A DNA stretch of 61,233 nt from Candidatus Acidiferrales bacterium (GCA_035272605.1 DATEQM010000016.1:1-61233); one strand, 5' to 3'; counted from the first letter of the stretch, positions 12,506 to 53,312 are shown. The notes: generated by a model not told the origin, from the sequence alone. Translations and numbers: made by a program.

Positions 12506-12507
12506 CC

Positions 12508-12834: not shown

Positions 12835-12902
12835 CCGCCCGCCCCATGCAAACCTGAAGACCGCAGCAACGCGCCGCAGCGATCGCCGCGAGCCAATATT
12901 CC

Positions 12903-13502
12903 ATGCCTGATTTTGCCGAACCGATTGCCAATCTGGTGGAGCAGCTGAAGCGCCTGCCCGGCATCGGGCAGAAGACGGCGCAGCGGCTGGCCTTCCATCT
13001 GTTGCGCGCGGACCGCGAAGAGTCGGAATCGCTGGCCGCGGCGATCCTGGCGGCAAAGAACAACCTGCGCGAATGTTCCGTGTGCAACAACGTCACGGAC
13101 ACCGATCCCTGCCTCTACTGCCGGAACCCCGCGCGCATCCAGAAAACGATCTGCGTGATTGAGGAGCCGCACAGCATCGTGCCGGTGGAAAAGACGCGGG
13201 CCTATAACGGCCTGTACCACGTGCTGGGCGGCACGCTCTCGCCGTTGAATGGGGTGGGGCCGGACCAGTTGAACATCAAGAGCCTGCTGGAGCGGCTGAA
13301 GAAGGGCACGGTGGAAGAAATCATCATCGCCACGAATCCCACCACGGAAGGCGAAGCCACCGCCGTCTATCTTTCGAAGCTGATCAAACCGCTCGGCGTG
13401 CGCGTCACCCGCATTGGCATGGGCATTCCCGTGGGTAGCGACCTGGAATATGCCGACGAGGTGACCATGTCCAAGGCCATGGAAGGCCGCCGGGAGCTGT
13501 AG
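12903..13502 (+). CDS. recR: Recombination protein RecR
   Basis: [17 protein letters not shown] helix-hairpin-helix, [16 protein letters not shown] zinc finger, Toprim segment. Confidence 0.95.
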
Positions 13503-13530
13503 CGATCCCGGCGCGCGTGCGGGGCGGGCG

Positions 13531-22429: not shown

Positions 22430-22462
22430 GGTCCTTTTTTCTGTCCAGCGTCCCGGGAAGTC

Positions 22463-23610
22463 TCATCCCCGCCGCAGGGCCTCCACCACGCGCAGGTGCA
22501 TGGCCTCGAGTGCGGGAATCGTGCCCGTAGCCAGACCCAACAGGAGAATGAAGGCCGCTCCCAGTACCGCGCTTTCCGGCGGCATGAGAAAGATGGGCAG
22601 AGCTCCTCCGGTAGGATCTCCGCGCCTGATCAACAGCCACGCCAATCCCAGACCCAGGACGCCGCCAACCACGGCCAGCACCACGGACTCGCTCAGCACC
22701 AGCATCAGGATCAGCCCGTTCGGAAAGCCGACGGTCTTCAGCACGGCCAGTTCGGTGATCCGCTCGCGCACCGACTGCATCATCGTGTTCCCGGCCACCA
22801 GCAGGATGATGAAAAACACCACACTCAAGATCGCCGTGATGATCGCCCCGATGTTGCCCACCTGCTTGGCGAATCCCACCATGAAGGCCTTCTCGGTGGA
22901 CGTTTTCGTCTCGTTGTCCGAGTTGGCGAACAAAGCGTCCAGGCGCTTCACGATTTGGGGGGCTTGGTCCGGAGGCGAAATCCGGATGATGTACCAGCCC
23001 ACCATGCCGTTGCGCCGCACCCGGCTTTCGTCCAGGTATTTCCAGTGAAAGACAAACTGCGTCACGTCCGTCGCGGGCGTGGCCCCGTCGTAGATGCCGT
23101 CCAGCGTGAATTCCCAGGAATTCGAGCCGTTCTTTTTCTGCCACGGCGCCGTGAGCGGGATGCGGTCCCCGATCTTCCAATGGAAGCGGTCGGCTAGATA
23201 TCGGCCGCAGATCGCTCCGGTGCGGTCGGCCAGCCAGGCTTTCTTCTGGTCTTCGGGAAGCAGGAACTCCGGATAGAGGCGGAGGTAGCGTTCCGGGTCC
23301 ACCGCCATCTGCGCGAAGAAATTCTTGGGGTCCTGATAGACACCGCCGAACCAGGTGGCATTGGCCACATCTACCACCCCGGGCACCGCGGCGATGCGGT
23401 CCTGATAGCTGAGCGGCAGGGGCAGGATGATGGACGTTTTGTGCGTCATCACCAGACGGTCCACTCCCGCGATCTGGATGCCGATATCAAAAGCATTCCG
23501 CACTGCCCCCAGGTAGCCGAACAGAAGAAACGCCACCAGGATGGAAAGCAGTGTGAACAGCGTGCGCACCCGTTTCCGGCGCAGGTTGCTCCACACCAGG
23601 GGCAGGAATT

Positions 23611-23614
<4 letters not shown>
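22463..23614 (-). CDS. ABC transporter permease (FtsX/MacB-type), second paralog
   Basis: A GTG start at 23614 overlaps the ATPase stop (GTGA). VKFLPLVWSNLRRKRVRTLFTLLSI, C-terminal RERITELAVLKTVGF FtsX motif. The longer ORF 22463..23797 overlaps the ATPase gene. Confidence 0.85.
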
Positions 23615-24351
<737 letters not shown>

Positions 24352-30555: not shown

Positions 30556-33261
30556 ATGAGCAAAATAACAACCGACCTCCTCCACCGCCTTCGCTCTCTC
30601 CTCCGCCGCGATGCCGTCGAGTCGGAGATGAACGACGAATTGCGCTTCCACGTCGAACGCCAGACGGAAAAGCTGGCCGCCTCTGGTATGAATCCCGAAG
30701 AAGCGGCTCGCCGGGCGCGCATTGAGTTGGGCGGCCTCGAGCAGGTCAAAGAAGAATGTCGCGACGCCCGCGGCACGAACCTGCTCGAAAGCCTTCTCCA
30801 GGACGTGCGCTACGCCCTGCGCGTGTTGCGGAAGAGTCCGGGATACACGGCCGTCTGCGTGCTCACCCTGGCTCTGGGCATCGGCGCCAACGCCGCCATC
30901 TTTTCCGTAATGGACTCCGTGCTGCTGAGCCGCCTGCCGGTGAAGCACCCGGAAGAGCTGGTGCTGATCAATTCGTGGGATGCGAAGGACCGCGTCAGTA
31001 GCTCCTTCTCCTACCCGATGTATCAGGACTTGCGCGACCGGAACACGGTGTTCGCGGGCGTGATTGCGCGCGGCGGCGCAAACTTCAATCTGAGTTACCG
31101 CGGCGTGAACGAGCGCGTGCGCGGCGAGCTCGTCTCCGGGAATTACTACGACGTTCTCGGCGTGCGGCCCTGGATCGGCCGCCTCTTTACCCAGCAGGAC
31201 GACATCATCCCCGGCGGGCATCCCGTCGTCGTGCTCAGCTACGGATTCTGGCAGCGGCGATTCGGCGGCGACCCCTCCGTCGTGGGACTGACCGCACTTC
31301 TCAATGAGCACCCCATGACGGTGATCGGCGTCTCCCCGCCCGAATTCTACGGCACAGGTCTCGACGCCCCCGAGGACGTGCGCGTGCCGATGATGATGAC
31401 TCTGGTCTTCAAGCCCGTGCCCGAGAACCGAATGCAGAGCCGCGGCCACCAGTGGCTCGACCTGATGGCGCGGCGCAAGCCCGGCGTCTCGCTCGCACAG
31501 GCCCAGACCTCGCTGGAACTCCTTTATCACCAGATCCGAGAGGGCGAGGAACAGCAGCTCCCCGCGACGACCTCCGCCATCGACCGCCAGCAATTCCTGG
31601 TCAGCAGGATCCGGCTGGAGCCGGGCGCCCAAGGCAGACAATCCTTGCAGCGCCACATGAGCCAGCCGCTGCTCTTGTTGTTTGCCGTGACCGGCATCGT
31701 GCTGCTGATTCTCTGCGCCAATCTCGCCAATCTATCGCTCGCCCGCTCCGCCGCGCGCGGCCAGGAAGTGGCCGTGCGACTGGCGCTCGGCGCGGGGCGC
31801 GCGCGCCTGGTGCGGCAGTGGCTCACGGAAAGCCTGGTACTCTCGCTGCTCGGAGCGGTGGCCAGCGTGCTCGTCGCCGTTTGGGGAAAGGCCGCGCTGC
31901 TCAGCTTTGTCCCGGCGGATTTCCGCGGCAACCTCGTCTCCCCGCTGGGGTGGCACGTGTTTGCTTTCTTGTTGGTGGTGGCCATGCTCACGGGAGTGCT
32001 CCTGGGCCTCGCTCCGGCCCTGCGCGCCACCCGCTCTTCCTCGGTCGGCACGCTGCACGCGGATTCGCGCATGTCCGCGCCGGGCGGCGGAGTGTTGAGC
32101 CTGCGCGGCGGCCTCACCCTCTTGCAGGTGGCGCTTTCGCTGCCGCTGCTCGTCGGCGCTGGGCTGTTCCTCCAGAGTTTGCGCAATTTGGAGGGCATGG
32201 ACGCCGGATTTCAGAAAGAGAACATCCTGCTGGCCAGCCTGAATCCCTCTCTGAATGGATATCCCCAGGCGCGCGTTCACAGCCTGTACGCCGACCTGCT
32301 CGCCCAGCTCCGCGCGCAGCCCGGCGTGCGCTCGGCCAGTCTCACCACCAACCCGCCCATCTCGGGTGGCTGGGACCAGGACTCTGTCGTCGTCGAAGGC
32401 TACCAGCCGCGCCAAGGCGAAGACATGAGCCCGTACTGGGCAGCCGTTTCAACCGACTATTTCAAGACTCTGGGAATTCCGCTGCTCGCCGGTCGCGGAT
32501 TCAACGACCAGGACGTGGCGGGCGCGCCCAAGGTCGCCATCATCAACGAAACCATGGCCCATTACTTCTTCAAAGACGCGAACCCCCTCGGCCGCAAGAT
32601 CGGCCTCGACAAAATACCCGACACCGAGATTGTCGGTGTGGTGAAAGACTCCAAGTACACGGATCTGCGCGAGAAGACCCCGCGGCACATGTACATGCCC
32701 ACCATGCAGCAGGACCGGCTGTTCGATCTGGCCATCGCCGTGCGCACCGCGGGCGACCCGCGGGCCGCGGTGGACATGGTGCGCTCCGTAACCGCGCACG
32801 TGGACCCCCACTTGCCGCTCTACGGTGTGACCACCCTCGAAGCCCAAATCGACGTTTCGCTCACGGCCGACCGCATGATCGCCTGGCTCTCGACCCTGTT
32901 CGGGATGCTCGCCACTCTGCTCTCGGCCATCGGCCTTTACGGTGTTGTGGCCTATTCCGCGGAGCGCCGCACGCGCGAGATCGGCATCCGCATCGCGCTC
33001 GGCGCGCTCCCTGGCGACGTCTTGGACTTGGTGCTGCGCCAGACCGGATACATCGTAGCCGCTGGTCTCGCGTTGGGTGCCGCCGCCGCGCTGGCGCTCA
33101 GCCGCATCATCGGCAACTTGCTCTATTCCGTCCGGCCCATGGAGCCCGCCGTCTATCTGCTGGCCGGCTTCTTGCTCGCCGCCTCGGCAGGCCTGGCGGC
33201 CTATCTACCCGCGCGCCGCGCCACCCGCGTGGATCCCGTGATGGCCCTGCGCCACGAGTAG
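30556..33261 (+). CDS. ADOP-family duplicated MacB/FtsX-type permease (paralog)
   Basis: 901 aa with the same architecture. Its prefix domain is nearly identical to the previous gene's (EMNDELRFHVERQTEKL...VKEECRDARG). Confidence 0.9.
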   Translation: MSKITTDLLHRLRSLLRRDAVESEMNDELRFHVERQTEKLAASGMNPEEAARRARIELGGLEQVKEECRDARGTNLLESLLQDVRYALRVLRKSPGYTAVCVLTLALGIGANAAIFSVMDSVLLSRLPVKHPEELVLINSWDAKDRVSSSFSYPMYQDLRDRNTVFAGVIARGGANFNLSYRGVNERVRGELVSGNYYDVLGVRPWIGRLFTQQDDIIPGGHPVVVLSYGFWQRRFGGDPSVVGLTALLNEHPMTVIGVSPPEFYGTGLDAPEDVRVPMMMTLVFKPVPENRMQSRGHQWLDLMARRKPGVSLAQAQTSLELLYHQIREGEEQQLPATTSAIDRQQFLVSRIRLEPGAQGRQSLQRHMSQPLLLLFAVTGIVLLILCANLANLSLARSAARGQEVAVRLALGAGRARLVRQWLTESLVLSLLGAVASVLVAVWGKAALLSFVPADFRGNLVSPLGWHVFAFLLVVAMLTGVLLGLAPALRATRSSSVGTLHADSRMSAPGGGVLSLRGGLTLLQVALSLPLLVGAGLFLQSLRNLEGMDAGFQKENILLASLNPSLNGYPQARVHSLYADLLAQLRAQPGVRSASLTTNPPISGGWDQDSVVVEGYQPRQGEDMSPYWAAVSTDYFKTLGIPLLAGRGFNDQDVAGAPKVAIINETMAHYFFKDANPLGRKIGLDKIPDTEIVGVVKDSKYTDLREKTPRHMYMPTMQQDRLFDLAIAVRTAGDPRAAVDMVRSVTAHVDPHLPLYGVTTLEAQIDVSLTADRMIAWLSTLFGMLATLLSAIGLYGVVAYSAERRTREIGIRIALGALPGDVLDLVLRQTGYIVAAGLALGAAAALALSRIIGNLLYSVRPMEPAVYLLAGFLLAASAGLAAYLPARRATRVDPVMALRHE

Positions 33262-40949: not shown

Positions 40950-41516
40950 TCATTGCTCTGGATTACGCTTCGCCCCCGGGGCAACGAGTTCATGATTTTT
41001 GATGTCGCTGTCGTCGAGCAGTTTTGTCTGCTTCACTTCGTATCCTCCCTGCTCGGGCAGGACGAGCGTGAGCCGGCCGTGACCTTTCCAGACGCCCGGC
41101 TCGATGTCAATCCGGACGTAGTAGTCCTGGCCAGGCTTCATATCCAGGTCGATGCCCGACGCCTTGTCATTCGAACGCATGCTGTGCTTTCCGGGATCGA
41201 GTTTCACGATGAAGAAGCGGCCATTCTCCATGCGTGCGAGCTCACTGTCGTCCGCATAGACGGACGGTTTGAGTCCGGAGCCTACGGACCGGCGCTGCCG
41301 ATAGACGTACAAAGTCACCTTTTCGACAGGAACCGCAGCACCCTCCTGCTTCTGTTTAGCCTGCTGGGGCTTTGAGGCTTCCTTCTCGGCAGGCGGGTTC
41401 TGCTGTTGCGGAGCTTGCGGGATCGCCCACGTCGAACCGATCGCTCCCATCCAGCCGACAACCATCAAAACCACACAAACAGTCTTCATCCTTTTCATGT
41501 GTTTATCTCCTTTCAA
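40950..41516 (-). CDS. Secreted DUF2846-like protein
   Basis: Signal peptide (MKRMKTVCVVLMVVGWMGAIGSTWA), Gln/Pro/Lys-rich linker, then LYVYRQRR...VYADDSELARMENGRFFIVKLDPGKH, as recalled for DUF2846. 4-bp overlap with the upstream reductase gene. Confidence 0.55.
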   Translation of the reverse strand: MKGDKHMKRMKTVCVVLMVVGWMGAIGSTWAIPQAPQQQNPPAEKEASKPQQAKQKQEGAAVPVEKVTLYVYRQRRSVGSGLKPSVYADDSELARMENGRFFIVKLDPGKHSMRSNDKASGIDLDMKPGQDYYVRIDIEPGVWKGHGRLTLVLPEQGGYEVKQTKLLDDSDIKNHELVAPGAKRNPEQ

Positions 41517-42844
41517 CGGAAAGATGCGGCCATCCTCCTGGACGAACTCGTGACTGTCCGCCGCGACGGACGCTGTGAGCCCGCCCCAGCCTTCCGTGCG
41601 GCAAATTCCTGCGAGGGCTCAGGTGGGCTGACCCGAGGGCTGTTCTTGAGGCCGAAGTCGTGCTCTATCGCGTAGGCCATCAGGAGTGCAAATTCCCTGC
41701 GGCCTACCGCCGGACAGGAGAGGCCGTCTCGGCTCAACACCTGCTGCAAGTTCGCGGCATCAAACCGCATTTCCTCGCAGGTAATGTAGGGCGTGTAGGA
41801 GGCCCCCACAGACTTGTAGTAGAACTTCTCCTGACGGTTCTGATCCTCAGGAATCCGCGACACCTGGGTGACTCCGGCGACGCCGACCGCGCGCACCATC
41901 TGCGGGATATATAGCTCGTGGGCCGTCTCTGCATTGTTGACAAGGTGATAGCTCTCGCCGGCGTCACCCTGCTCGCAGACCGAGCAGATCACCTTCGCGG
42001 CGTAATCTGCGGGCACGATATTCAGCCCGCTCGCCCGGTTGTAGCAGATGCGCAGGTCTAACTCGCCGGGCTCTGCGGCGTCCCAAATTCCGGTCTGCTG
42101 GCGTTTCAGGCGCAGCAGGAACGCCGCCCAGGCGTAAAACACGTCAAACTTGCACACCGCTCCCCAGGGGGGCTCCAGAAGCCTTCCGCAGATGGTGGAA
42201 GGGCGGAAATAGCGGCAGCGGGTTCCCGTGCGCGCGGCGAATTGGCGCACCAGCATCTCGGCCTCGAATTTGCTTCGTTCGTATGGATTTCGAAATTGCG
42301 CCGAAGGGTTCACGACGCCGGGTTGAATCCGGCCCGAGGCGCCTCCGCAAACGTAGGCCGTGCTGACATAGCAAAACTCCCTGACAGAGATATCGGACAG
42401 CAAGGCCAGCAGGCGGTGTGTGCCCTCCACGTTTACGCGCCGCAGCGCGGCGACTGCCCCCGGCGTGGAGCGAAAATCGGTGAGACCGGCGAGATGAAAG
42501 AACCAATCGATGGGGCGAGCTTGCAATTCCTGAAGGGAAGGGCCGGCCAAGCCGTGGTTCTCGCAGTCGAAGTCCAGCTCCACGCACCGAATCACGGTGG
42601 AGAGCCGCGACAGGAGGGGCTCGTAAAGATCCTGCCGAATGCCGAGATAGGCGAAGCCGTCCGAGAGCAGAATGCGGCGTAGCCGGTCCTGGAGCGAGAC
42701 GCCCAGGCTGTCTGCCCGACCGAAGACAAATATCTCCAACTCCTCCAAACGCGAGAGATGGCGCTTGAGCAGCTCGAAGATCAGGTTTCGTCCAAGAAGA
42801 CCGGTGGCGCCGGTCATGGCAATTCTGCGTTTTTTCGATTTCAT
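41513..42844 (-). CDS. NAD(P)-dependent reductase, NAD_binding_4 / thioester (fatty acyl) reductase-like SDR
   Basis: From ATG 42844: MKSKKRRIAMTGATGLLGRNL (Rossmann), FHLAG, VSTAYV, catalytic YERSK (YxxxK). Confidence 0.72.
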   Translation of the reverse strand: MKSKKRRIAMTGATGLLGRNLIFELLKRHLSRLEELEIFVFGRADSLGVSLQDRLRRILLSDGFAYLGIRQDLYEPLLSRLSTVIRCVELDFDCENHGLAGPSLQELQARPIDWFFHLAGLTDFRSTPGAVAALRRVNVEGTHRLLALLSDISVREFCYVSTAYVCGGASGRIQPGVVNPSAQFRNPYERSKFEAEMLVRQFAARTGTRCRYFRPSTICGRLLEPPWGAVCKFDVFYAWAAFLLRLKRQQTGIWDAAEPGELDLRICYNRASGLNIVPADYAAKVICSVCEQGDAGESYHLVNNAETAHELYIPQMVRAVGVAGVTQVSRIPEDQNRQEKFYYKSVGASYTPYITCEEMRFDAANLQQVLSRDGLSCPAVGRREFALLMAYAIEHDFGLKNSPRVSPPEPSQEFAARKAGAGSQRPSRRTVTSSSRRMAASFR

Positions 42845-42911
42845 TGCGTTTCCCTCCCCGTTCACTGCCGGAAACCCCGCCAAGACAAGTTCGCTTGCGC
42901 CCTCCAAGAAC

Positions 42912-43658
42912 TCAAAACCAGCCGCTGAACAGAGTCAGCGCGACCGGTGCGGCAAACACAAAGCTCCCGAACCGGTCCAGAACGCCACCGTGGCCGGGCA
43001 GAAGACGGCCAAAGTCCTTGACCCCCCCTCTACGCTTGATCCAGGAGCCGGACAGATCTCCCGCCCATGCTGCTGTGACCAGAACGCCAGACACCGCCAG
43101 GGCCGGCCCGGGGCCGGAATTCAGAAGACCTCGCAATACCTCTGCGGTGACTGCCGCGGCCAAGATTCCACCGATGGCCCCTTCAACGGTCTTGTGGGGA
43201 CTTATGGAAGGGGCGAGGCGGTGCTTGCCGAACAGATGGCCGCAAACTTGGCTGAATCCATCGAACACGGCGACCACCAGGTACACAAATTGAATGCGGC
43301 GCGTTGCGGAAAAGAATGAGAAGAGGAACAGGCCGGAACCGAAGCAACCGTACGCCGCCCAGATCGCGGCGCGCGCTCCCGTTCCAAGTTCGTGCGCGCC
43401 GGCTAGCACGGTGGAGAGCTCGTGGGCGCCGATGGCCAGAAGCAACACAGCGAAACATGAGAAGCCTGCGCGTCCCAGGGCAGCCAGGAGCAGCACGGAG
43501 TTCATCACCAGGAAGTAAATGGCAAACTTCAGCCAGCGTTCCCGCCGCCGGCGCGGCTCCGCCTTGCGGCCGGCAACGTACGTTCCGGCGCCACCGAATG
43601 CGAAGGCTGCCAGGCAGAACCAGAAGACTTCGGCGATCATGGTTGTTGCCGCCCGCAA
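42912..43658 (-). CDS. CdsA-family CTP:lipid-phosphate cytidylyltransferase
   Basis: Polytopic. PHKTVEG and the CdsA signature SWIKRRGGVKDFGRLLPGHGGVLDRF. Confidence 0.8.
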   Translation of the reverse strand: MRAATTMIAEVFWFCLAAFAFGGAGTYVAGRKAEPRRRRERWLKFAIYFLVMNSVLLLAALGRAGFSCFAVLLLAIGAHELSTVLAGAHELGTGARAAIWAAYGCFGSGLFLFSFFSATRRIQFVYLVVAVFDGFSQVCGHLFGKHRLAPSISPHKTVEGAIGGILAAAVTAEVLRGLLNSGPGPALAVSGVLVTAAWAGDLSGSWIKRRGGVKDFGRLLPGHGGVLDRFGSFVFAAPVALTLFSGWF

Positions 43659-44524
43659 ACGAATTCCATGGCTGAGGCCTGCACTCGGATACGGAGAGAG
43701 GTCACTCCGGCGATGAGCTCGCCATCCACCATCAGTTCCTGGGAGCGGCTGAGCGCCAGCGCCGTCTTCGTTTTTGTCGCAAAGGTTGCCGGGCTGTAGA
43801 ACTGCAGCCCGGAAAGCATCGAGAGATTGTGAACAGTCTGCCGGAGGAATCCCGAATGCAATTCCATCACGTCAAAATGGCCGTCATGGCAGCTAGCCCG
43901 GGGCAAGGAAAGGAAATTTCCAAGATGGCGGGTATTGCTGGCGATAAAGCCGGTCAGGAGTTTGCGTCCCGGCGAGCCTGCTCCCTCGACGACCCGCATT
44001 TCTGTTGACGCGGGCCGCAGACAGGCCGCGGCCGCGGCGTATCCGAGCGTGCCAAACCTTCTGAACCGGCCGCCTGCCGAACGAACGACTGCGGCGGGGT
44101 ATCCCACTGCGACCGTGCTGGCGGAGAGCAGCCTTCTCCAGCCTCCGCCGGTTTCCCGGTAAAAAACGTCCATCAGGTCAATGCGCAGCGAGCGGTCGGA
44201 GCGGATGGCTTCAAAACTCAGTGCCGGGGGATACAGGCCCAGATCCCGCGCCAGAGAGTTGCCTCGGCCGGTGGGAATGATCGCGAGTCTCTGCTCGCGA
44301 TGCAGGCACCCGTTGAGCACCTCCAGAAGCGTGCCATCTCCCCCGACGACGGCAATGCCATCGAACTCTCCCGCCTCGATGGCCAGTTGACGCGCATGAC
44401 CGGGATACTCTGTGAAAACCATCTTGCTGGCGAATTGCCGTATTCCCCGGAGAATGGGCACAAGCTTGCGAGGAGACCGGACTCCCCCCGACCGGCGATT
44501 GACGATGGCCAGCCAGTTCCTCAT
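43637..44524 (-). CDS. Diacylglycerol-kinase-family lipid kinase (YegS/LCB5-like)
   Basis: From ATG 44524: MRNWLAIVNRRSGG..., VVGGDGTLLEVLNG, PTGRGNSLAR. The start overlaps the upstream stop (ATGA). Confidence 0.8.
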   Translation of the reverse strand: MRNWLAIVNRRSGGVRSPRKLVPILRGIRQFASKMVFTEYPGHARQLAIEAGEFDGIAVVGGDGTLLEVLNGCLHREQRLAIIPTGRGNSLARDLGLYPPALSFEAIRSDRSLRIDLMDVFYRETGGGWRRLLSASTVAVGYPAAVVRSAGGRFRRFGTLGYAAAAACLRPASTEMRVVEGAGSPGRKLLTGFIASNTRHLGNFLSLPRASCHDGHFDVMELHSGFLRQTVHNLSMLSGLQFYSPATFATKTKTALALSRSQELMVDGELIAGVTSLRIRVQASAMEFVCGRQQP

Positions 44525-45141
44525 GGAATGCTCCTGTCTCTTCCGCGAATGATCCAGTAGAGCCCGCCCACATCCGCTCTCCAGCCGGGCAACAGGCAGA
44601 GCAGCACGAGTTCTTCGGTGTAGGCGGCAGCGCTGAGGACCGTCATGGCATAGAAAAGCCACTGGAAATATCCCCACAGGAACAGGCTCACCACGAAGAA
44701 GCCCTGCAGGTAGGCGGCAACTCTCGTGAGCACCGTGTGGAAACTCGAAATGCGGCCGTAGCGCCACAGGGAAAGTCCCGCTTCGGCGAGATACAGGCCG
44801 ATCACGATGGAAAAAGCCGTACGATGCGAGGCCAAAACCCCGGAGTGAAATGCCCAGAGTCCGGCTACGGCAATCAGGCACACAAGAACGTCGGCTGTGG
44901 AATCCAGGAAAGCGCCCAGGGAAGAGCGCGCATCAAGGGCTCGCGCCAGTAGGCCGTCGGCGATGTCGCTGAGCAAGCAGCCCAGCAAAAGCCACTTGAA
45001 CAATCTCTCGTCCCTGGTCAGAACTGCCAGCAAGAGGATCGGAGCCGCCAGCAGCCTGGCAAGCGAGACCGCATTGGGCGCATAGCGCCAACCATCCCAA
45101 GCCGGGAGTGCTGGTGAGATTTCATCCACTGAGCAATTCAT
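44521..45141 (-). CDS. CDP-alcohol phosphatidyltransferase family protein
   Basis: DIADGLLARALDARSSLGAFLDSTAD matches DG(x)2AR(x)8G(x)3D(x)3D. Probable ATG at 45141 (MNCSVDEIS). Confidence 0.8.
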   Translation of the reverse strand: MNCSVDEISPALPAWDGWRYAPNAVSLARLLAAPILLLAVLTRDERLFKWLLLGCLLSDIADGLLARALDARSSLGAFLDSTADVLVCLIAVAGLWAFHSGVLASHRTAFSIVIGLYLAEAGLSLWRYGRISSFHTVLTRVAAYLQGFFVVSLFLWGYFQWLFYAMTVLSAAAYTEELVLLCLLPGWRADVGGLYWIIRGRDRSIP

Positions 45142-45351
45142 TTGTCCCCCTAGGCGCCGCTTGCGAGAGTCCGAAAAGCGGCTCGCCGAGAGCGACCGTA
45201 GAAGGAAGGTGCGCTGGGGCGCAAGCGACATGGAGCGAATGTCGTCTCGGGACCGTGGATGTCGCACTTTGTCGTGGGTGCTGCCGTTGGATTTGAAGGA
45301 CTTAGGGATTGAGGGTAGAATCCGGCCACGGGATTCTTGTAAGCGCCCAGA

Positions 45352-47185
45352 ATGAGCCAGCCTTCACCCCCGCCCGGCCCGGTTTCGTCCGTTACGGGCA
45401 GCGGCGACCGCCTTGATTCCTGGAAAGAAATCGCCTCGTATCTGAAGCGCGAGGTTCGCACTGCGCAGCGTTGGGAAAAATCGGAGGGCCTGCCCGTCCG
45501 CCGCCATCAGCACGACAAGTTAAGCTCTGTTTTCGCTTACCGCTCGGAGCTGGATGCCTGGTGGCAGGAGCGGCAGCCGGTGCTGGAGAAGGAGCCGGAG
45601 ACCGTGGAAGAAAGCGGGCAGGCGGGCCTGGCGGAGCCAACGGCTGAGGAGTTGCCTCAGCAATCTGTTGAGGAAGCGACTGTCCACAAGCCCTCCCGGC
45701 GAGCGATGGCAATCTTCGCCTTCGTCATAGCCCTCGCCCTCTCGCTTGGCCTCGCCTATCTGCTCCAGAGGGCCAGAAGCAGTGGCCCGCAGGGATTCAC
45801 GAAGACCCGCCTGGTCGTCCTGCCCTTCCGGAATTTGAACGGCGATCCGGCTCAGGAGGTTTTCTGCGAGGGACTCACGGAATCGATGACCACGCAGCTC
45901 GGCCGGCTCGATCCCGAACACCTCGGCGTCATCGCCAGTACCACGGCAACCCTTATTAAGGACAAGACCATAGACAAGATCGGGCGAGAGCTGGACGTCA
46001 AATACGTCCTGGAGGGCAGCGTCTTTCGTTCCGGCGATCATGTGCAGGTTCACGCGCAACTGATTCAGGTGAGCGACCAGACCCACCGCTGGGCAGACAC
46101 CTATAGCCGGGACGTGAGCGACATGTTTTCCGTGCAGAATGACGTTGCCAATGCCATCGCCGCAGAAATCCGCCTCAAAGTGACCCCCGCCGAGCAGGCC
46201 CGGCTTTCCGATGGGCTCAAGATTTCCCCCGGGGCGTACGAGGCCTACCTCCAAGGCTTGGTCAGTTGGAATAAGCGGACGCCGGAAGGGATCCGGAAGA
46301 GCATCGACTACTTTCAACAAGCCATCCAGAAAGATCCCCAGTTTGCCCTCGCCTGGGCAGGCCTCGCCAACGGCTATTCGATTTTGAGCGCAGTTCCCAC
46401 GGACGCGATTCCTCCGCGTGAGGCCATGCCCAAGGCGAAAAAAGCCGCCGAAGAGGCCATCCGGCTCGACCCCGCTTCGGCGGAGGGCCATGCCGCTCTG
46501 GCTCTCGTCCTGTACAGCTACGACTGGGACTGGGAAGGCGCGGAGGAGGAGTTCCAGCGCGCCTTTGCCATCAACCCCTCCTATGGCACCGCCCGCCATT
46601 GGCATTCGCTGCTGCTGCTGGCGCGCGGCCGGCAGCCGGAAGCCCTGGCGGAAATCGAGCTGGCGCGCACGCTCGATCCGCTCTCACCGGTGATCCCTTC
46701 GACCCGAGCCATGGCGCTGTACTGCGCCCGGGACTATGACCGCGTGATCGAAGAAGCCCCCAAAGCTCTTGAAGTCGAGCCGGATTCCTGGCTGCTTCGC
46801 TATCACTAATGCGCAGGCCCTGCTTCAAAAACGCCGCTCTGCCGAGGCCGTAACCCAGATGAAAATGGGCCAGCGCATTTCCGGGGGTGACCCGATCTTC
46901 ACCATGGCGCTCGGTCACGCGTACGGGGTTTCCGGCGACCGCGCCTCCGCAGTGAAATCACTCACGGATTTGAAGGCCATGGCGGAGAAGCGCCGCGTTC
47001 CACCTCTTTACTTTGCTCCCATTTATGTCGGCCTGGGAGATCACGACCAGGCCATGCGCTGGCTGGAAAAGGCCTATGAGGAAAGAATCGACTATCTCGT
47101 CTTTCTGAACGTGGAGCCCATGTCCGACCCGCTCCGTTCTGATCCCCGTTTCCAACAACTGCTCCATCGCATTGGACTTCTCTGA
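45352..47185 (+). pseudogene. HTH-TM-TolB-like-TPR protein split by a frameshift near 46800-46810 (pseudogene, sequencing error or recoding)
   Basis: ORF 45352..46809 ends ...LEVEPDSWLLRYH*. The +1 frame continues the same TPR array as NAQALLQKRRSAEAV...YFAPIYVGLGDHDQAMRWLEKAYEERIDYLVFLNVEPMSDPLRSDPRFQQLLHRIGLL (46769..47185), a typical C-terminus for this protein type. Confidence 0.6.
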
Positions 47186-47310: not shown

Positions 47311-48162
47311 ATGCGGCAACCCCTGGGCCAGCATTTTCTGGTGGACGCCGGATGGCGCGCGCGCATTGTCGAAGCGCTGCACGTCGCCCCCGGCGACGCC
47401 TGGATCGAAATCGGCGCGGGGCGCGGAGAAATGACCGCCGAACTCGCGCGCCGCGCCCGCCGCGTCATCGCCATCGAAAAGGATCCGCCGCTCTTCCATC
47501 ACCTGCGCCGCCTGGCCGCCGAGGCCGCCAACCTTTCCATCGTCCAGGGCGACATTCTGAAAGTGGATCTCGCAACGCTCATCCGCCGGGAGGAAGAAGC
47601 CGCGCCTGCCGGCTGCGTCTCGGTCTATGGCAGCCTGCCCTATTACATCACCTCGCCCATCCTCCACCGGCTCTACCCGCTCGCCGCGCGCCTCGCGGGA
47701 ATCCACGTAATCATCCAGTATGAAGTCGCGGAGCGCCTGGTGGCGCGGCCCGGCACGCGCGACTTCGGCTACCTCTCCGTGGCCACACAGTTCTACACCC
47801 AGCCGGAGATCGTGCTGCGCCTCCCTCCGGGCGCGTTTCGCCCGCCGCCGCGCGTCACCTCGGCGCTCGTGCACCTGCGCGCCCCGGGAGCCGGGGCGCA
47901 GCTCGGCGTCGAGGACGCGCACGAGTTTCTGGGTTTCGCACAGGCCTGCTTTGCGCAGAAGCGCAAGAAGCTGCTGAACAACCTCCAAGCCCTCGCCCCG
48001 CGGGCGCAGGCGCTCGCATGGCTGGAGGCCGCGGACGCCCCGGTCGGCGCCCGCGCCGAAGAATTGTCGCTCCCCCAGCTCGCCGCCGTCTGGCGCGCCG
48101 CCGCTACTTCGGGGGCAACGTATCGCGCACGGCTACCAGCCGCGCCGGTTGATTCGTCATGA
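47311..48162 (+). CDS. rsmA: 16S rRNA (adenine1518/1519-N6)-dimethyltransferase
   Basis: LGQHFLVD, IEIGAGRGEMT, NLPYYITSPIL-like SLPYYITSPIL. Confidence 0.9.
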   Translation: MRQPLGQHFLVDAGWRARIVEALHVAPGDAWIEIGAGRGEMTAELARRARRVIAIEKDPPLFHHLRRLAAEAANLSIVQGDILKVDLATLIRREEEAAPAGCVSVYGSLPYYITSPILHRLYPLAARLAGIHVIIQYEVAERLVARPGTRDFGYLSVATQFYTQPEIVLRLPPGAFRPPPRVTSALVHLRAPGAGAQLGVEDAHEFLGFAQACFAQKRKKLLNNLQALAPRAQALAWLEAADAPVGARAEELSLPQLAAVWRAAATSGATYRARLPAAPVDSS

Positions 48163-48838
48163 TGCCGTCCACTCCGGCAGCCGCCAGCGCGCGCATCTGT
48201 GCGGGCTCGTCGATCGTCCAGGTAACCACCTTCAGCCCCCGGCGATGCGCGTCCTCGATCAGCTCGGGAGTCACGCAATCGCTCCGCGGCCCGATCTGCC
48301 GCGCGCCCACGCGCACCGCCTCCTTCACCATGTCTTCCCCTCCAGACTCGAACAGCAGCCCGGTCATCACCAGCCGGTCGAGCTGGTGGATGCGGTCCAG
48401 CACCGACCCATCGAAGCACAACACCACCGAGGCCTTCGATTCCTTCCGGCCCCGCAGCGCGCTGATCACGGCGCGCTCCACGCCATATCCCGCGCCGCCT
48501 TTGATTTCCAGATACAGGCTCAGGTCCGCCTGTCCCGCGAAATCGAGCAAATCCTCCACTGCGGGCATGCGCTCGCCCTTGAATTCCTCGGAAAACCAGC
48601 TCCCCGCATCCAGTTTCCGAAGCTCGGCGTACGTAAAATTCTTCACCATTCCGTCGCCGTTGGTGGTCCGGTTCAGCGTGGCATCGTGCAGCACCACCAG
48701 CCGCCCGTCCCGCGAAAGGTGCAGGTCGGTTTCAATGCACTCCGCGCCCATCGCCGCGGCCTTTCGGAATGCCGCCATCGTGTTTTCCGGCGCGGCCAAT
48801 GAGGCGCCGCGGTGCGCGATCACCCAGGGAAGACGCAT
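48104..48838 (-). CDS. Glycerophosphodiester phosphodiesterase
   Basis: VIAHRGAS..APENT...ETDLHLSRDGRLVVLHD GDPD motifs. The 3' end overlaps rsmA by 59 bp (convergent). Confidence 0.88.
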   Translation of the reverse strand: MRLPWVIAHRGASLAAPENTMAAFRKAAAMGAECIETDLHLSRDGRLVVLHDATLNRTTNGDGMVKNFTYAELRKLDAGSWFSEEFKGERMPAVEDLLDFAGQADLSLYLEIKGGAGYGVERAVISALRGRKESKASVVLCFDGSVLDRIHQLDRLVMTGLLFESGGEDMVKEAVRVGARQIGPRSDCVTPELIEDAHRRGLKVVTWTIDEPAQMRALAAAGVDGIMTNQPARLVAVRDTLPPK

Positions 48839-48992: not shown

Positions 48993-50471
48993 ATGAACGA
49001 GAGCGCGATAATCGCCGCTGTTCGAGCGGCTGCCGCCCGCCAGCCCGGCGCTCTGGCCGTCGTTTCACCCCGCGAAACCCTGGCGTATGCCGCACTCGAA
49101 CGCCGCGCCGCCGCCGTGGCCGCGCAGCTCGCCGGCGTGCCCGGCGACGTTGTCGGCCTGCTCCATCCGAATTCGCCCGGTTTCGTTGCGGGGCTGCTCG
49201 GCGCCCTCTGGGCCGGGAAGACCGTCGCCGTCCTCCCCTGGATCGCTCCCACGCCTTTGCTCAAACTCATGGCCGCGGAGGCGGGCTTCCGCAGCGTCCT
49301 CTCCGCCGACGAACTCGCGCCCCGCGCCCTAGAAGCCGGCCTCGCGCCGATCGTTGCGGCGCCCCTCGGCGAGTCCTCCCACGCCATCTCCGGCCCGCCG
49401 CTCGCGCCTCGCGCCCTCGAAGCTGCCGTCCTCCTCTACACCTCCGGCACCACCGGACGCCCGAAGGCTGTGGCGCTCTCCGAAACGAATCTGCTCGCCA
49501 ACATCGAAGGGTGCCGCGTGGCTGGCGAGTTCACCGGCGACGATGTGATGCTTGCCATCCTGCCCCTCTTTCATGCCTTCGGCCTGACGGTTACGTTGCT
49601 GCTCCCTCTCGTGCTGGGTGGAAAAGTGGTGCTGGAAGACCGCTTCGTGCCCCGCACCTCGCTCCAATCCGTTGCCGCGCATCGCGTCACCGCCATGATC
49701 GGCGTGCCCAGCCAGTTTCGCCTCCTGGCCAAGGAACCGGGAACTGTGGACGCCGCCTCCCTGCGTCTCTGCATTGCCGGCGCGGAACGCCTCGGCGACC
49801 ACGTCGGCGAAGCCTTCCAGCAACGCTTCGCACGCCCGCTGCTCCAGGGCTATGGCGCCACGGAAGCCTCGCCCGTCGTCGCTTTCAATCTCCCGCGGCA
49901 GAATCGTCCCGGCAGCGTCGGCCTGCCTCTCCACAACCTGCGCGTCACCATTCGCGAGGGCCTCCGCGAACTCCCCCGCGGCGAGCACGGAGAAGTCTGC
50001 GTGGAAGGCCCCAGCGTCATGCTCGGCTATTCCGGCCAGCCGCAAGCCACAGCGCAGAAAATTCCCTCCGGCGTGCTCCGCACCGGCGACCGAGGCTGGC
50101 TGGACGCCGACGGCTTCCTCCATCTCGCCGGCCGCGCCGACGACATGCTCAAAGTCGCGGGTGAAAAAATCTATCCCGCGGAAATCGAACGCGTGCTCGA
50201 ACAAATGGATGGCGTGGAGGAAGCCGCGGTGATCGGTCTGGCTGACCCGGCGCGCGGCACTACCCTCGCCGCCTTCGTCGTCCCCCGGCTGGGCACCACG
50301 CTCGATCCCGCGACTCTGCGCGCCGCCTTCCGCGAACGGCTCGAATCCGCCAAAACGCCGCGAACCATTGCCGTGGTCGAGCAACTCCCCCGCGGCCTGA
50401 GCGGCAAGGTGGACAAGAAAGTGCTCGTGGAACAAGCCGCGCACGCCGAGAGCGGTTCAACCCAAAGGTAG
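48993..50471 (+). CDS. AMP-binding enzyme (acyl-CoA/acyl-ACP synthetase-like)
   Basis: LLYTSGTTGRPKAV, GYGATEASP, TGDRGWLDADGFLHLAGRADDMLKVAGEKIYP, GKVDKK. Confidence 0.88.
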   Translation: MNESAIIAAVRAAAARQPGALAVVSPRETLAYAALERRAAAVAAQLAGVPGDVVGLLHPNSPGFVAGLLGALWAGKTVAVLPWIAPTPLLKLMAAEAGFRSVLSADELAPRALEAGLAPIVAAPLGESSHAISGPPLAPRALEAAVLLYTSGTTGRPKAVALSETNLLANIEGCRVAGEFTGDDVMLAILPLFHAFGLTVTLLLPLVLGGKVVLEDRFVPRTSLQSVAAHRVTAMIGVPSQFRLLAKEPGTVDAASLRLCIAGAERLGDHVGEAFQQRFARPLLQGYGATEASPVVAFNLPRQNRPGSVGLPLHNLRVTIREGLRELPRGEHGEVCVEGPSVMLGYSGQPQATAQKIPSGVLRTGDRGWLDADGFLHLAGRADDMLKVAGEKIYPAEIERVLEQMDGVEEAAVIGLADPARGTTLAAFVVPRLGTTLDPATLRAAFRERLESAKTPRTIAVVEQLPRGLSGKVDKKVLVEQAAHAESGSTQR

Positions 50472-50644: not shown

Positions 50645-51181
50645 GTGACCCTCGGACAGAAAATTCGCTACCTCCGCCTCGTTGAGGGCCAGCTCCGCTC
50701 CCTCGATCGCCCCATGACTCAGGCGGAAGTCGTTCGCGCCGTCCGCAAGGACCTCGGCGAATCCATCAGCCAGGCCTATCTCTCCCAGATCGAAAGCGGC
50801 GCCCGCCCGCACATGACCCACCACACCCGCCAGTTGCTGGCGCGTTTTTTCAAGGTCCATCCCAACTACCTCCTGGACGATCCCGAGGGCTATCACCCCG
50901 AATTGCTTTCCCAGTTGGGCGCGGGCGGATTCACCCTGGAGGCCTGGCTGCGCGCGGGTGCGGAGCAATTCCACCGCGACGCCGAAGTGCACGACGCTCT
51001 CATCGCGCTCAGCGAAAATCCCGAGGCGCGCCGGGCTCTGCTCCTGCTCCATTCCGTGATTGAAGTTCCGGGCCTAGTGGACCAGCTCCGCCACACCCTG
51101 CATCCTTCGCGCCCCGCCGAGGGGCCGCGGAACGGTTATCCCGCCCGGCGGGATGCGCGCTCCCGGAGGAGGCCGTCATGA
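50645..51181 (+). CDS. XRE-family helix-turn-helix protein with C-terminal extension
   Basis: LGQKIRYLRL...MTQAEVVRAV...ISQAYLSQIESGAR HTH. Probable GTG start at 50645; the stop overlaps the NfeD start by 4 bp. Confidence 0.68.
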   Translation: MTLGQKIRYLRLVEGQLRSLDRPMTQAEVVRAVRKDLGESISQAYLSQIESGARPHMTHHTRQLLARFFKVHPNYLLDDPEGYHPELLSQLGAGGFTLEAWLRAGAEQFHRDAEVHDALIALSENPEARRALLLLHSVIEVPGLVDQLRHTLHPSRPAEGPRNGYPARRDARSRRRPS

Positions 51182-51819
51182 CTCTTTCCAATTTCTTCCT
51201 GCTCTGTTTTCTGGTGGGCTTCGCGCTGAGCCTGCTTTCGTTCCTGTTCGGCGCGCTGCACCTGCATCTGCCGCATCACCCCAGCGTGCACGGCGTGTTC
51301 CACCACAGCGCGGCGCACGCGCCCTCGATGGCACGCGCCGGAGCAGGTGCGGCTCACGCCGGCGCGGCCGCCGGCAAAGGCCTCGCCGGACGCCAGAAAG
51401 GCGGCGCGGCGCCGGTCAATTTCATGACCGTATGCGCCTTTCTCGCCTGGTTCGGGGGCGTGGGGTTTCTGGTGACGCGTTACTACGCCCTGGCCGCCGT
51501 GGCTGCGGTGGGCGCGGCCCTCGCCGGAGGACTCACCGGTTCCTCCATCGTCTTCGTGTTCCTTGCCAAATTCCTGCTGCCGCACGAGACGCAGCTCGAT
51601 CCCGCCGACTTCGAGATGGTCGGCACACTGGCCACCGTGACCCTGCCGATCCGTTCTGAAGGCATCGGCGAGATCCAGTTTTCTCAGGAAGGCACGCGGC
51701 GCTCCGCTTCCGCCCGCAGCGAAGACGGCCAGGCGCTCGAGCGCGGCGCGGAAGTGGTCGTGGCGCGCTACGAGCGCGGCATGGCCTATGTCAAGCGCTT
51801 CGAGGAGATGGTGAAGTAA
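51178..51819 (+). CDS. NfeD-family membrane protein
   Basis: N-terminal TM helices and a C-terminal OB-like segment GTLATVTLPIRSEGIGEIQF...GAEVVVARYERGMAYVK. Lies immediately upstream of a flotillin gene, the classic pairing. Confidence 0.72.
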   Translation: MTLSNFFLLCFLVGFALSLLSFLFGALHLHLPHHPSVHGVFHHSAAHAPSMARAGAGAAHAGAAAGKGLAGRQKGGAAPVNFMTVCAFLAWFGGVGFLVTRYYALAAVAAVGAALAGGLTGSSIVFVFLAKFLLPHETQLDPADFEMVGTLATVTLPIRSEGIGEIQFSQEGTRRSASARSEDGQALERGAEVVVARYERGMAYVKRFEEMVK

Positions 51820-51863
51820 ACGAGTTTCGGGCTCATCCAATGCACTCGCCGGAAGGAGGGAGT

Positions 51864-53312
51864 ATGCAAACGGTTATGACTGTATGGATCATCGCGGCGC
51901 TCATGGTCCTCACCGTCCTGTTCCTCATGGTGGTGATGGCCAAGATGTTCCGCAGGGCCGGGCCCAACGAGGCCATCGTCGTCTACGGCTTCCGCGGAAC
52001 CCGCATCGTCAAGGGCGGCGGCACCATCATCTTCCCGATGGTCGAATCCTGCCGCGAACTCTCCCTCGAGCTGATGTCCTTCGACGTGGCTCCCCGCCAG
52101 GATATGTACACCAAGCAGGGCGTGGCGGTCACCGTGGAAGCGGTCGCGCAAATCAAAGTAAGGAGCGATCCCGAATCCATCACCACCGCGGCCGAACAGT
52201 TCCTCACCAAGGAACCCCAGGAACGCGAGGGGCTGATCCGCCTGGTGATGGAAGGCCATTTACGCGGCATCATCGGCCAGCTCACCGTCGAGCAGATCGT
52301 CAAGGAACCGGAGATGGTGAGCGAACGCATGCGCTCCACCTGCGCCGAAGACGTCAGCAAGATGGGCCTCGAAGTCGTCTCCTTCACCATCAAAGACGTC
52401 AAAGACAAGAACGACTACATCATGAACATGGGGCGCCCCGACGTCGCCCGCATCAAGCGCGACGCGGAAGTGGCCGCGGCCGAGGCCGATCGCGACATCG
52501 CCATCAAGCGCGCCGAAGCCCAGCGCGCCGCCGCCATCGGAAAAGCCCAGGCCGACCAGGAGCGCGTGCTCGCCGAAACACTCTCCCTCGCCAAACAGGC
52601 AGAGTCCCAGCGCGACTTGGAGATGAAGAAGGCCAATTACACCGAAGACGTCAAGCGCCAGCAGGCCCGCGCCGACAAAGCCTACGAAATCGAAACCAAC
52701 ATCATGCAGCAGAAGGTTGTAGCCGAGCAGGTCACCGTCCTCCAGGTCGAAAAAGAGCACCAGGTGAAGGTCCAGGAAGCGGAAATCAACCGCCGCGAAA
52801 AGGAACTCATCGCTCAGGTGCTCAAAGAGGCTGAAATCGAGCGCCAGAAAATCGAAACGCTCGCCGCCGCCGAACGCCAGAAGCGGGTCGCTGAAGCCGA
52901 AGGCCTGGCCTCCGCCATCCGCGCCCAGGGCCAAGCCGAATCCGAAATCATCTTCAAGAAGGGCGAAGCCGACGCCAAGGCCATGCACGTCAAGGCCGAA
53001 GCCTACCAGGAGTGGAACCAGGCCGCCGTCGTGGACCGCCTGATCTCCTCCCTGCCCGAAGTCATGCGGGCCATTTCCTCGCCTCTCGAAAAAGTGGACC
53101 GCATCACCATCGTCTCCACCGGCAACGGCGATTCCACCGGCGTCAGCAAACTCTCCGGCGACATGGCCAAGATGGCCGCGCAGGTTCCCGCAATCTTCGA
53201 AGCCCTCTCCGGCATGCAGATGTCGGAGCTTTTCGCCAAGGTCCGCCAGATCGGCGCAGCAGCTCCCACACCGCCGGCCGCAGCCGCGCCCGCAAAACCG
53301 GCTGGGGACTAA
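51864..53312 (+). CDS. Flotillin (SPFH/Band-7 family)
   Basis: N-terminal membrane hairpin, SPFH domain, and a long Ala/Glu/Gln-rich flotillin coiled coil (AEAQRAAAIGKAQADQERV...). ATG 51864 follows ggaaggaggga. Confidence 0.88.
   Translation: MQTVMTVWIIAALMVLTVLFLMVVMAKMFRRAGPNEAIVVYGFRGTRIVKGGGTIIFPMVESCRELSLELMSFDVAPRQDMYTKQGVAVTVEAVAQIKVRSDPESITTAAEQFLTKEPQEREGLIRLVMEGHLRGIIGQLTVEQIVKEPEMVSERMRSTCAEDVSKMGLEVVSFTIKDVKDKNDYIMNMGRPDVARIKRDAEVAAAEADRDIAIKRAEAQRAAAIGKAQADQERVLAETLSLAKQAESQRDLEMKKANYTEDVKRQQARADKAYEIETNIMQQKVVAEQVTVLQVEKEHQVKVQEAEINRREKELIAQVLKEAEIERQKIETLAAAERQKRVAEAEGLASAIRAQGQAESEIIFKKGEADAKAMHVKAEAYQEWNQAAVVDRLISSLPEVMRAISSPLEKVDRITIVSTGNGDSTGVSKLSGDMAKMAAQVPAIFEALSGMQMSELFAKVRQIGAAAPTPPAAAAPAKPAGD

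Follow-up and report, generated by a model that had tools for sequence, protein, structure and literature searches.

Overlapping genes for a putative lipid kinase, a short CdsA-type cytidylyltransferase and a PgsA-like transferase in an Acidobacteriota-type contig and its relatives

The contig of Candidatus Acidiferrales bacterium analysed here (GCA_035272605.1 DATEQM010000016.1:1-61233; the full stretch of 61,233 nucleotides is referred to as the window) carries five genes that run co-directionally on the minus strand. Open reading frame (ORF) listing, combined with Pfam and NCBIfam scans of the window, assigned them to a PgsA-like CDP-alcohol phosphatidyltransferase, a lipid kinase, a short CdsA-type cytidylyltransferase (the CdsA-like protein), an extended short-chain dehydrogenase/reductase (SDR), and a DUF2846 protein (Table 1). 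A preliminary description of the DNA had recognised the first four genes (41513-45141) by their catalytic signatures; all of the motifs it quoted are present in the translations, and the Pfam families match. The first three genes, referred to here as the trio, are the subject of this analysis.

Table 1. Features of the operon and its promoter-proximal region in the window
Feature	Position	Strand	Length and domain evidence
PgsA-like CDP-alcohol phosphatidyltransferase	44521-45141	(-)	206 aa, first gene of operon; CDP-OH_P_transf PF01066 52.8 bits
Soluble DAGK_cat/YegS-type lipid kinase	43637-44524	(-)	295 aa; PF00781 70.8 bits, YegS_C 22.4 bits
Short CdsA-type cytidylyltransferase	42912-43640	(-)	242 aa; CTP_transf_1 PF01148 134.8 bits
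Spacer	42845-42911	(-)	67 nt; GGAGG-type ribosome-binding site ahead of SDR ATG 42844
Thioester-reductase/fatty-acyl-reductase-like extended SDR	41513-42844	(-)	443 aa; NAD_binding_4 PF07993 104.4 bits
DUF2846 protein, N-terminal signal-like segment	40950-41516	(-)	188 aa; PF11008 49.2 bits
Divergent intergenic region	45142-45351		210 bp; presumed promoter region of operon and neighbouring HTH-TPR gene

The genes of the trio are joined by overlapping stop and start codons. Read from the DNA, an ATGA overlap links the transferase and kinase genes (44524-44521), and a second one links the kinase and CdsA-like genes (43640-43637). The preliminary description had correctly given the first of these overlaps, the 67-nt gap ahead of the SDR gene, and the 4-nt overlap between the SDR and DUF2846 genes (41516-41513), but its 22-nt overlap at the second junction has to be replaced: it would need a start at the upstream TTG 43658, whereas the database gene call (P0001, 242 aa) and 21 aligned homologues, all beginning MIxxV, place the start of the CdsA-like gene at ATG 43640. 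It is from the spacing of the genes that their co-transcription is inferred; a scan of the region for promoters and terminators found nothing above chance, and a search of RNA-seq runs recovered none that contains the region. The spacer ahead of the SDR gene has the same length in the most similar contig (L086, 79% identical), and no conserved element was found in it among loci more distant than L086.

The transferase contains the complete motif of its superfamily (D59xxD62G63xxA66R67x8G76xxxD80xxxD84) and also the N-terminal PNxIS..R segment, and its PF01066 score (cut-off 22) marks it as a member of the CDP-alcohol phosphotransferases. Its structural model (predicted local distance difference test, pLDDT, 87.6) has six transmembrane (TM) helices and an N-terminal helix and superposes best on PgsA (TM-score 0.60-0.67), whereas PSS, DIPPS, PIPS, and CPT fit clearly worse. 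S. aureus PgsA is the best solved relative both by this fold and by profile (40 bits), and the source pipelines label related proteins as PGP synthase or CMP-forming cardiolipin synthase. The score of the transferase nevertheless remains below all equivalog cut-offs of NCBIfam (ClsA, 35 vs 240; PgsA, 34 vs 109; PssA, 26.5 vs 107; PIPS, 26 vs 170).

The kinase possesses the motifs GGDGT, PTGRGN, and a C-terminal DGE, all of them conserved in 14 homologues, which together with the PF00781 match identify it as a predicted member of the DAGK_cat superfamily. Kinases of this superfamily phosphorylate not only diacylglycerol (DAG) but also ceramide, sphingoid bases, and phosphatidylglycerol (PG). 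Among proteins of solved structure, bacterial DAG-kinase-domain proteins and human sphingosine kinase 1 are about equally weak relatives, and every equivalog score of the kinase is far under its cut-off (51 vs 118.65 on TIGR00147, the YegS family).

The CdsA-like protein aligns to TmCdsA (structures 4q2e/4q2g) over residues 89-238 only, that is, over its C-terminal 150 residues; its N-terminal half is unlike that of canonical CdsA. It scores 88 against a cut-off of 385 on PRK11624 (CdsA), although its PF01148 match is strong (Table 1). Proteins of this type are short (~240 aa) and share the motif VAxFDGFSQ. A profile search among 1.84 billion cluster representatives (50% identity clusters) assigned 1,289 clusters to the subfamily at E<=1e-30, compared with 28,889 for CdsA-like proteins in general at E<=1e-10 (~4%), and by these sequence profiles the short proteins form a subfamily distinct from general CdsA. 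With about 1,300 clusters, mostly from soils and sediments, the subfamily is common. A search of the plasmid database PLSDB with the CdsA-like protein returned only C-terminal matches to canonical CdsA. In eight cases (P0414, P0423, P0440, P0472, P0473, P0481, P0497, P0507), the CdsA-like domain is part of a fusion of ~465 aa, whose C-terminal ~225 aa have no Pfam match; this region may be equivalent to a 224-aa membrane protein with a weak CTP_transf_1 match that is encoded directly after the CdsA-like gene of a Prolixibacteraceae locus (L006).

The order of the three genes is conserved far beyond the window. A survey that combined a genome scan with a metagenome scan (29-residue alignment, VAxFDGFSQ) yielded about 90 usable loci, which were annotated with hidden Markov models from the window proteins and matches. 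The order transferase, kinase, CdsA-like gene was found in 34 of the 48 loci whose sequence extends 1.5 kb or more beyond the upstream end of the CdsA-like gene, and the full trio is present in a metagenome-assembled genome (MAG) of Woeseiaceae (Gammaproteobacteria; L055). Most of the exceptions are Bacteroidota (Sphingobacterium, Prolixibacteraceae, Bacteroidales, Fluviicola), which possess only the pair of transferase and CdsA-like genes, sometimes with a gene of the TauE family in between. The genome scan of this survey, made with the full CdsA-like alignment, recovered at least eight full-length loci among the matches listed (Bacteroidota, Woeseiaceae, Ignavibacteria); the matches listed were mostly canonical CdsA of Firmicutes, detected on the generic pattern GG[VI]LDRFD, and none came from cultured Acidobacteria. 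The literature searched for this combination of genes contained no description of a fixed three-gene operon.

The most similar contig is fully syntenic with the window, from an AMP-binding gene through glgA and trxA. Between the two, the ratio of nonsynonymous to synonymous substitutions (dN/dS) is 0.16 for the transferase, 0.21 for the kinase, 0.19 for the CdsA-like protein, and 0.23 for the SDR, which indicates purifying selection on all four genes; the flanking glgA has a value of 0.10. By contrast, the trio occurs in the same order and tightly packed, but without the SDR, on long contigs of acidobacterial type (the 1.18-Mb contig L001, L002/L003, and the P0005 contig). The preliminary description had treated the cluster as one unit; among the relatives surveyed, this holds for the order of the trio but not for the reductase, which lies beside it in only 12 of 91 loci. 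The conserved unit comprises three genes, not four. The DUF2846 gene (dN/dS 0.15) is confined to the window and L086/L087 among the loci compared and is specific to the host lineage.

The genes that surround the trio differ among the lineages. In an Ignavibacteria MAG (L011, 4857-12064), a compact arrangement encodes, in this order, a B12-binding radical SAM enzyme, a 264-aa protein, an SDR, a DAGK kinase, the CdsA-like protein, the CDP-OH transferase, and a protein of the leucine-carboxyl-methyltransferase family, which amounts to the same four families as in the window in another order, plus enzymes of a lipid-tailoring type. The kinase-less pair of Sphingobacterium chuzhouense (L007, 8130-16105; similar in L008) is located among genes for HMG-CoA reductase, a UbiA prenyltransferase, an 878-aa PPDK_N/PEP-utiliser, a DUF3419 (BtaA-like) protein, and a 226-aa membrane protein, a context suggestive of a lipid pathway that is linked to isoprenoids or unusual in some other way. 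In 13 marine or sediment, Woeseiaceae-like loci (L055, L108, L109, L113, L116, L117, L119, L122, and others), the trio is followed by a conserved membrane protein of ~147 aa without a Pfam match. Six marine or sediment loci also encode, downstream of the trio, a 359-aa NTP_transf_3/IspD-like nucleotidyltransferase that recalls CpgD/CC_1153 of Caulobacter. In eight soil loci, a DUF4833 gene is found downstream in the opposite orientation. Genes of the AsmA/DUF748 family (YhdP-like, lipid transport) lie within a few kilobases of the trio on two unrelated contigs (L002, 10673-12340; P0005 contig, 12240-14528), which may be a coincidence or a link to the export of lipids to the outer membrane.

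The copy of the CdsA-like protein in the window departs from its relatives at a catalytic position. In TmCdsA, Asp219 and Asp249 bind the Mg-K centre, and the exchange D249A abolishes 98.2% of the activity (PMC4083444). Opposite the DRIDG of TmCdsA, the window protein reads DRFGS, which places a Gly at the position of Asp249, whereas the equivalent of Asp219 is retained; the full CdsA signature with its Asp219-Asp249 dyad (SxxKRxxxxKDxxxxxPGHGGxxDRxD) is therefore absent. This change, which is evident in the alignment to TmCdsA, had been overlooked in the preliminary description. Across the subfamily, the position is occupied by Asp in 82 cases, by Gly in five, and by Asn in four, and the position of Glu222 is occupied by Ala or Gly throughout. 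Members with Gly form a clade (window, L086, and P0006/L091) whose sequences are 60-79% identical. Decay of the CdsA-like gene to a pseudogene was considered and rejected, given its dN/dS and the retention of the Gly in this clade; the substitution pattern rather indicates that the gene is under purifying selection in the Gly clade and not decaying. Such natural Asp249-to-Gly variants would provide a test of how strictly the metal dyad of CdsA is needed.

It is very improbable that these are merely divergent housekeeping genes, the only cdsA and pgsA of their host. The enzymes belong to the right superfamilies, and the analysis covered a 61-kb window of the genome. However, each of the three proteins scores far under the equivalog cut-offs, in agreement with the earlier proposal that the cassette stands apart from housekeeping functions, and the N-terminal half of the CdsA-like protein and the replacement of a metal-ligand Asp by Gly or Asn in some members point in the same direction. 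Also the patchy distribution across phyla, the small share of the subfamily among CdsA-like clusters, and the absence of an uppS/dxr/rseP-type context from the window argue against a housekeeping role.

The SDR carries the motifs TGATGLLG and YERSK, and its NAD_binding_4 score is twofold that for Epimerase (52.3 bits). In the Protein Data Bank (PDB), its best sequence match is the reductase (R) domain of MxaA (E = 5e-9), ahead of GalE (about 5e-5). The AlphaFold (AF2) model (pLDDT 87.7; residues 402-443, ~42 in all, disordered) retrieved as its top 20 Foldseek matches the R domains of nonribosomal peptide and polyketide synthases (NRPS/PKS), an archaeal T-R didomain, the fatty-acyl reductase (FAR) DPW of rice, and the R domains of carboxylic acid reductases (CAR), with E-values of 5e-21 to 5e-16; epimerases and dehydratases rank after the reductases, from about 6e-16. 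Sequence profiles and model thus classify the SDR as thioester-reductase/FAR-like rather than epimerase-like, and the acyl-reductase character proposed in the preliminary description is borne out by Pfam, NCBIfam, PDB, and fold comparisons, none of which groups it with sugar epimerases. It is a divergent member, with scores under the cut-offs of TIGR01746 (76.6 vs 213 bits) and PRK07201 (77.5 bits). With the thioester-reductase R domains and FARs (R domains of MxaA and CAR, rice DPW, bacterial FARs of the PRK07201 type), it shares TGxxGxxG, YxxxK, NAD_binding_4, and the best structural matches, but it differs from them as a stand-alone protein of about 400 aa without a carrier-protein or adenylation partner. 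A CerR-like identity was rejected, because CerR is NDUFA9-like and periplasmic, whereas the SDR is R-domain-like and has no signal peptide.

Among loci with generous flanks, the SDR adjoins the trio in 6 of 25. It is located downstream of the CdsA-like gene in the window, L086, L004, L091, L106, L128, and L166, upstream of the transferase gene in L129, L138, and L149, and in other orders in L011 and L006. Two subfamilies, with only 25-28% identity between them, are represented among the trio-adjacent SDRs; the second is more clearly reductase-like (PRK07201, 176-187 bits; TIGR01746, 114-156 bits). Members of the window-type subfamily are 45-50% identical across Omnitrophota, cyanobacteria, Chloroflexi, and Elusimicrobia, where they occur without the trio, either alone (as in Chloroflexi) or beside a GMC oxidoreductase (as in Omnitrophota). 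Because of its rarity beside the trio, its varying positions, and its division into two subfamilies, the SDR is a facultative accessory outside the conserved unit. Its repeated independent recruitment suggests that the functional link with the trio is real but optional, and the recurrence of this neighbour hints at a substrate other than ordinary DAG in some lineages.

These results bear directly on the complete four-enzyme route of the preliminary description, in which the SDR would form a fatty alcohol, the kinase an alkyl phosphate, the CdsA-like protein a CDP-alkanol, and the transferase an alkyl-phospho-X or ether-type lipid. The logic of phosphorylation, CMP activation, and transfer by a coupled trio can be retained, but the reductase step cannot be upheld as part of it. 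The route as a whole is quite unlikely, even though the SDR is R-domain/FAR-like by three kinds of comparison, thioester-reductase-type SDRs of both subfamilies lie in different orders beside the trio in Acidobacteria-type, Ignavibacteria (L011), and Prolixibacteraceae (L006) loci, which suggests repeated recruitment, and the CTP_transf_1 superfamily includes enzymes that act on non-glycerol lipid alcohols. About three quarters of the trio loci with adequate flanks lack the SDR, SDRs of the window type commonly occur in the absence of the trio, and in the window itself the 67-nt gap separates the SDR gene from the coupled trio. There is no gene for a carrier protein or of the alkyl-DHAP-synthase type nearby, and neither DAGK_cat kinases nor CdsA enzymes are known to act on simple fatty alcohols or alkyl phosphates.

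There is about an even chance that the trio is a translationally coupled accessory operon of kinase, cytidylyltransferase, and transferase, for which a route from DAG to a PG- or cardiolipin-type lipid is the most parsimonious function. Family membership, catalytic motifs, coupling of the genes, conservation of the trio, and purifying selection are established by the comparisons above; the reaction order, the head group, the substrates, and what the SDR contributes are inferred. The soluble kinase would phosphorylate the free hydroxyl group of a membrane lipid alcohol, the integral-membrane cytidylyltransferase would convert the lipid phosphate to a CDP-lipid, and the 6-TM transferase would move the phospholipid moiety to an acceptor alcohol with the release of CMP. 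Because the transferase is PgsA-like and the activating enzyme is of the CdsA type, the default sequence would lead from DAG via phosphatidic acid and CDP-DAG to PG-phosphate or a cardiolipin-type anionic lipid. This would provide DAG, or a special DAG-like species, with a self-contained route back to the phospholipid pool alongside the housekeeping pathway. The SDR and DUF2846 genes would have been added downstream in the host lineage, and the SDR would probably supply or modify the lipid substrate rather than catalyse a core step. Ceramide, alkylglycerol, or reductase-derived alcohols are also possible substrates of the trio.

Several points weigh against the DAG-based route. The cytidylyltransferase activity of the window copy is uncertain, given the Gly in place of Asp249 in a subfamily that lacks Glu222; DAG as the substrate of the kinase is a default guess; and plain DAG salvage leaves the recurring SDR neighbour unexplained. 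The trio would bring together, in a single putative transcription unit, everything that is needed to turn a free lipid alcohol into a phospholipid with a head group. Identification of its product would extend the repertoire of abundant but poorly cultured soil phyla by a pathway for lipid remodelling or for envelope lipids and clarify the function of accessory pairs of CdsA and PgsA paralogues, such as YnbAB of E. coli.

The other genes of the window have no relation to lipid synthesis; among them are those for efflux pumps, ADOP permeases, regulators, and flotillin, as well as purA, glgA, and moeA. Two tandem duplicated permeases of the ADOP family, a hallmark of Acidobacteria, are encoded at 27842-30493 and 30556-33261 (+), each with a permease-prefix domain (TIGR03434, 974 and 934 bits), and additional permeases of the MacB/FtsX type at 21230-23797. 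The contig derives from a soil metagenome. Together with this origin and the nearest named homologue, which stems from a Bryobacteraceae MAG, the two ADOP permeases fit an affiliation with Acidobacteriota. Divergent from the operon lies a gene for an HTH-TM-TPR (CadC/HilA-like) protein (45352-47185, +), a candidate regulator of the cassette, which is split into ORFs of 485 and 138 aa by a frameshift near 46770-46809; its counterpart in L086 is intact (616 aa; 81% and 63% identical to the two pieces), and the split reflects either genuine pseudogenisation or a fault in the assembly.

Two further genes, 3-5 kb upstream of the cassette and syntenic in L086, encode a glycerophosphodiester phosphodiesterase (GDPD, 175 bits; 48104-48838, -) and an AMP-binding enzyme resembling long-chain-fatty-acid-CoA ligases (PRK06187, 333 bits, under the cut-off; 48993-50471, +). 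Both may be partners in lipid turnover, the latter perhaps as an acyl-activating enzyme for the stand-alone reductase. The GDPD gene is convergent with rsmA/ksgA (RrnaAD; 47311-48162, +), and their 3' ends overlap by 59 nt, as they do in L086. About 6 kb from the cassette, an ORF for an NfeD-like membrane protein without a Pfam match is followed by a flotillin gene (Band_7 + Flot, 490 aa; 51178-53312, +), which looks like a membrane-microdomain gene pair.

Comparison with the literature and with characterised sequences revealed two analogues that had been overlooked in the preliminary description, cpgABC of Caulobacter and ynbAB of E. coli. In Caulobacter crescentus, cpgA, cpgB, and cpgC (CCNA_01217-01219 / CC_1159-1161) are neighbouring genes that encode a transferase with a PgsA domain, a ceramide kinase of the LCB5/DAGK family whose activity has been proven biochemically, and an enzyme of the CDP-DAG-synthase type, all of which are needed for the formation of ceramide phosphoglycerate/CPG2 (PMC9393093, PMC10331486, PMC11324152, PMC13228409). 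Like the trio, the system follows a logic of phosphorylation, activation, and transfer on a lipid alcohol, and it represents an accessory pathway beside the essential housekeeping PgsA. The same logic has been documented by genetics in Caulobacter (PMC9393093, PMC11324152), and the anionic sphingolipids that it yields allow the bacterium to live without lipid A. However, the domain of CpgC is IPR015222 (Tam41/Mmp37), whose fold differs from that of CdsA (supplementary file 1 of the Caulobacter work) and which is not homologous to the CdsA-type domain (PF01148) of the window protein. Orthology between the two was rejected on these grounds, and the likeness of kinase and transferase is one of family description. 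The trio appears to have its logic and two of the three enzyme families in common with the Cpg system without being an orthologous system.

This likeness lends some appeal to a sphingolipid head-group module, in which a kinase of ceramide or long-chain bases, a CdsA-like activator of ceramide-1-phosphate, and a PgsA-like transferase that adds an anionic head group would form the CdsA-type counterpart of CpgB, CpgC, and CpgA; it nevertheless seems rather unlikely. Favourable to it are the consecutive locus tags and joint requirement of the Caulobacter genes, the nucleotidyltransferase genes near the trio in marine loci, and the presence of the transferase/CdsA-like pair in Sphingobacterium, Prolixibacteraceae, and Bacteroidales. 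These three lineages are known for sphingolipids. Also favourable is the reported occurrence of CpgB homologues across many bacterial classes (PMC10331486). Against it, CpgC is of the Tam41 type and not of the CdsA type, and Zik et al. found homologues of CpgC only in Caulobacterales and Sphingomonadales. Moreover, the cpg genes are part of a large sphingolipid cluster (spt, acpR, cerR, bcerS, transporters) that has no counterpart in the vicinity of the trio, be it in the window or in related loci: a search with E. coli Kbl for an alpha-oxoamine synthase (Spt-like) gene found none in the 61-kb window or in about 165 fetched loci, and the annotated ORFs of the window include no gene for an acyl carrier protein, a CerS-like protein, or an NDUFA9-like CerR. 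Because the sphingolipid genes of some producers are scattered across the genome (PMC11334938), the absence of an Spt-like gene from the neighbourhood is not decisive.

A broader interpretation, in which the trio would be widespread as the CdsA-type counterpart of the Cpg pathway and build a non-glycerol phospholipid (from a ceramide-like, alkylglycerol, or reductase-derived long-chain alcohol) with an anionic head group, is unlikely. It would imply an undescribed class of envelope lipids in Acidobacteria, Woeseiaceae, Ignavibacteria, and, without the kinase, Bacteroidota, with the alcohol provided by thioester-reductase SDRs that joined the trio on repeated occasions.

In the ynbABCD operon of E. 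coli, the gene for the CDP-alcohol transferase YnbA directly precedes and overlaps that for the CdsA paralogue YnbB, in the same order as in the trio and likewise accessory to a housekeeping cdsA. YnbB has been implicated in the biosynthesis of the glycolipid MPIase (PMC11413397), and a pathway of this kind, in which the transferase would join the dedicated CDP-DAG pool of a CdsA paralogue to a non-classical acceptor such as a phosphorylated sugar, following the proposal made for GlcNAc-PP-DAG in the synthesis of MPIase, would match the Bacteroidota loci, which carry exactly the kinase-less pair. For the trio itself it is improbable, since the kinase has no counterpart in ynbABCD and partners of the YnbC/YnbD type are absent from the window. 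Similarity is limited to the catalytic cores: BLASTP aligned only 25 residues with YnbA (30.8 bits), across the motif, and 97 residues with YnbB (80 bits), a 298-aa protein that resembles the window protein over the C-terminal core only.

A four-gene 'alternative lipid' cluster of Parabacteroides (cytidylyltransferase, SDR, CDP-alcohol phosphatidyltransferase, and an acyltransferase for lysophospholipids) is likewise an accessory operon predicted to produce a non-standard lipid but, by its description, differs from the genes of the window: its adenylyl/cytidylyltransferase is soluble, an acyltransferase is included, and a kinase is missing (PMC11300592). With the canonical CDP-DAG branch and DAG recycling (DgkB/YegS-family kinase, CdsA, PgsA or CMP-forming ClsA), the trio shares all three superfamilies and the predicted chemistry. 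It differs from the canonical branch in that its members miss the equivalog thresholds, are encoded in one operon, and include a CdsA-like protein of ~240 aa that lacks Glu222 and, in the clade of the window, also Asp249. Each of the enzyme families is textbook knowledge; the papers searched contain no account of their fixed three-gene combination.

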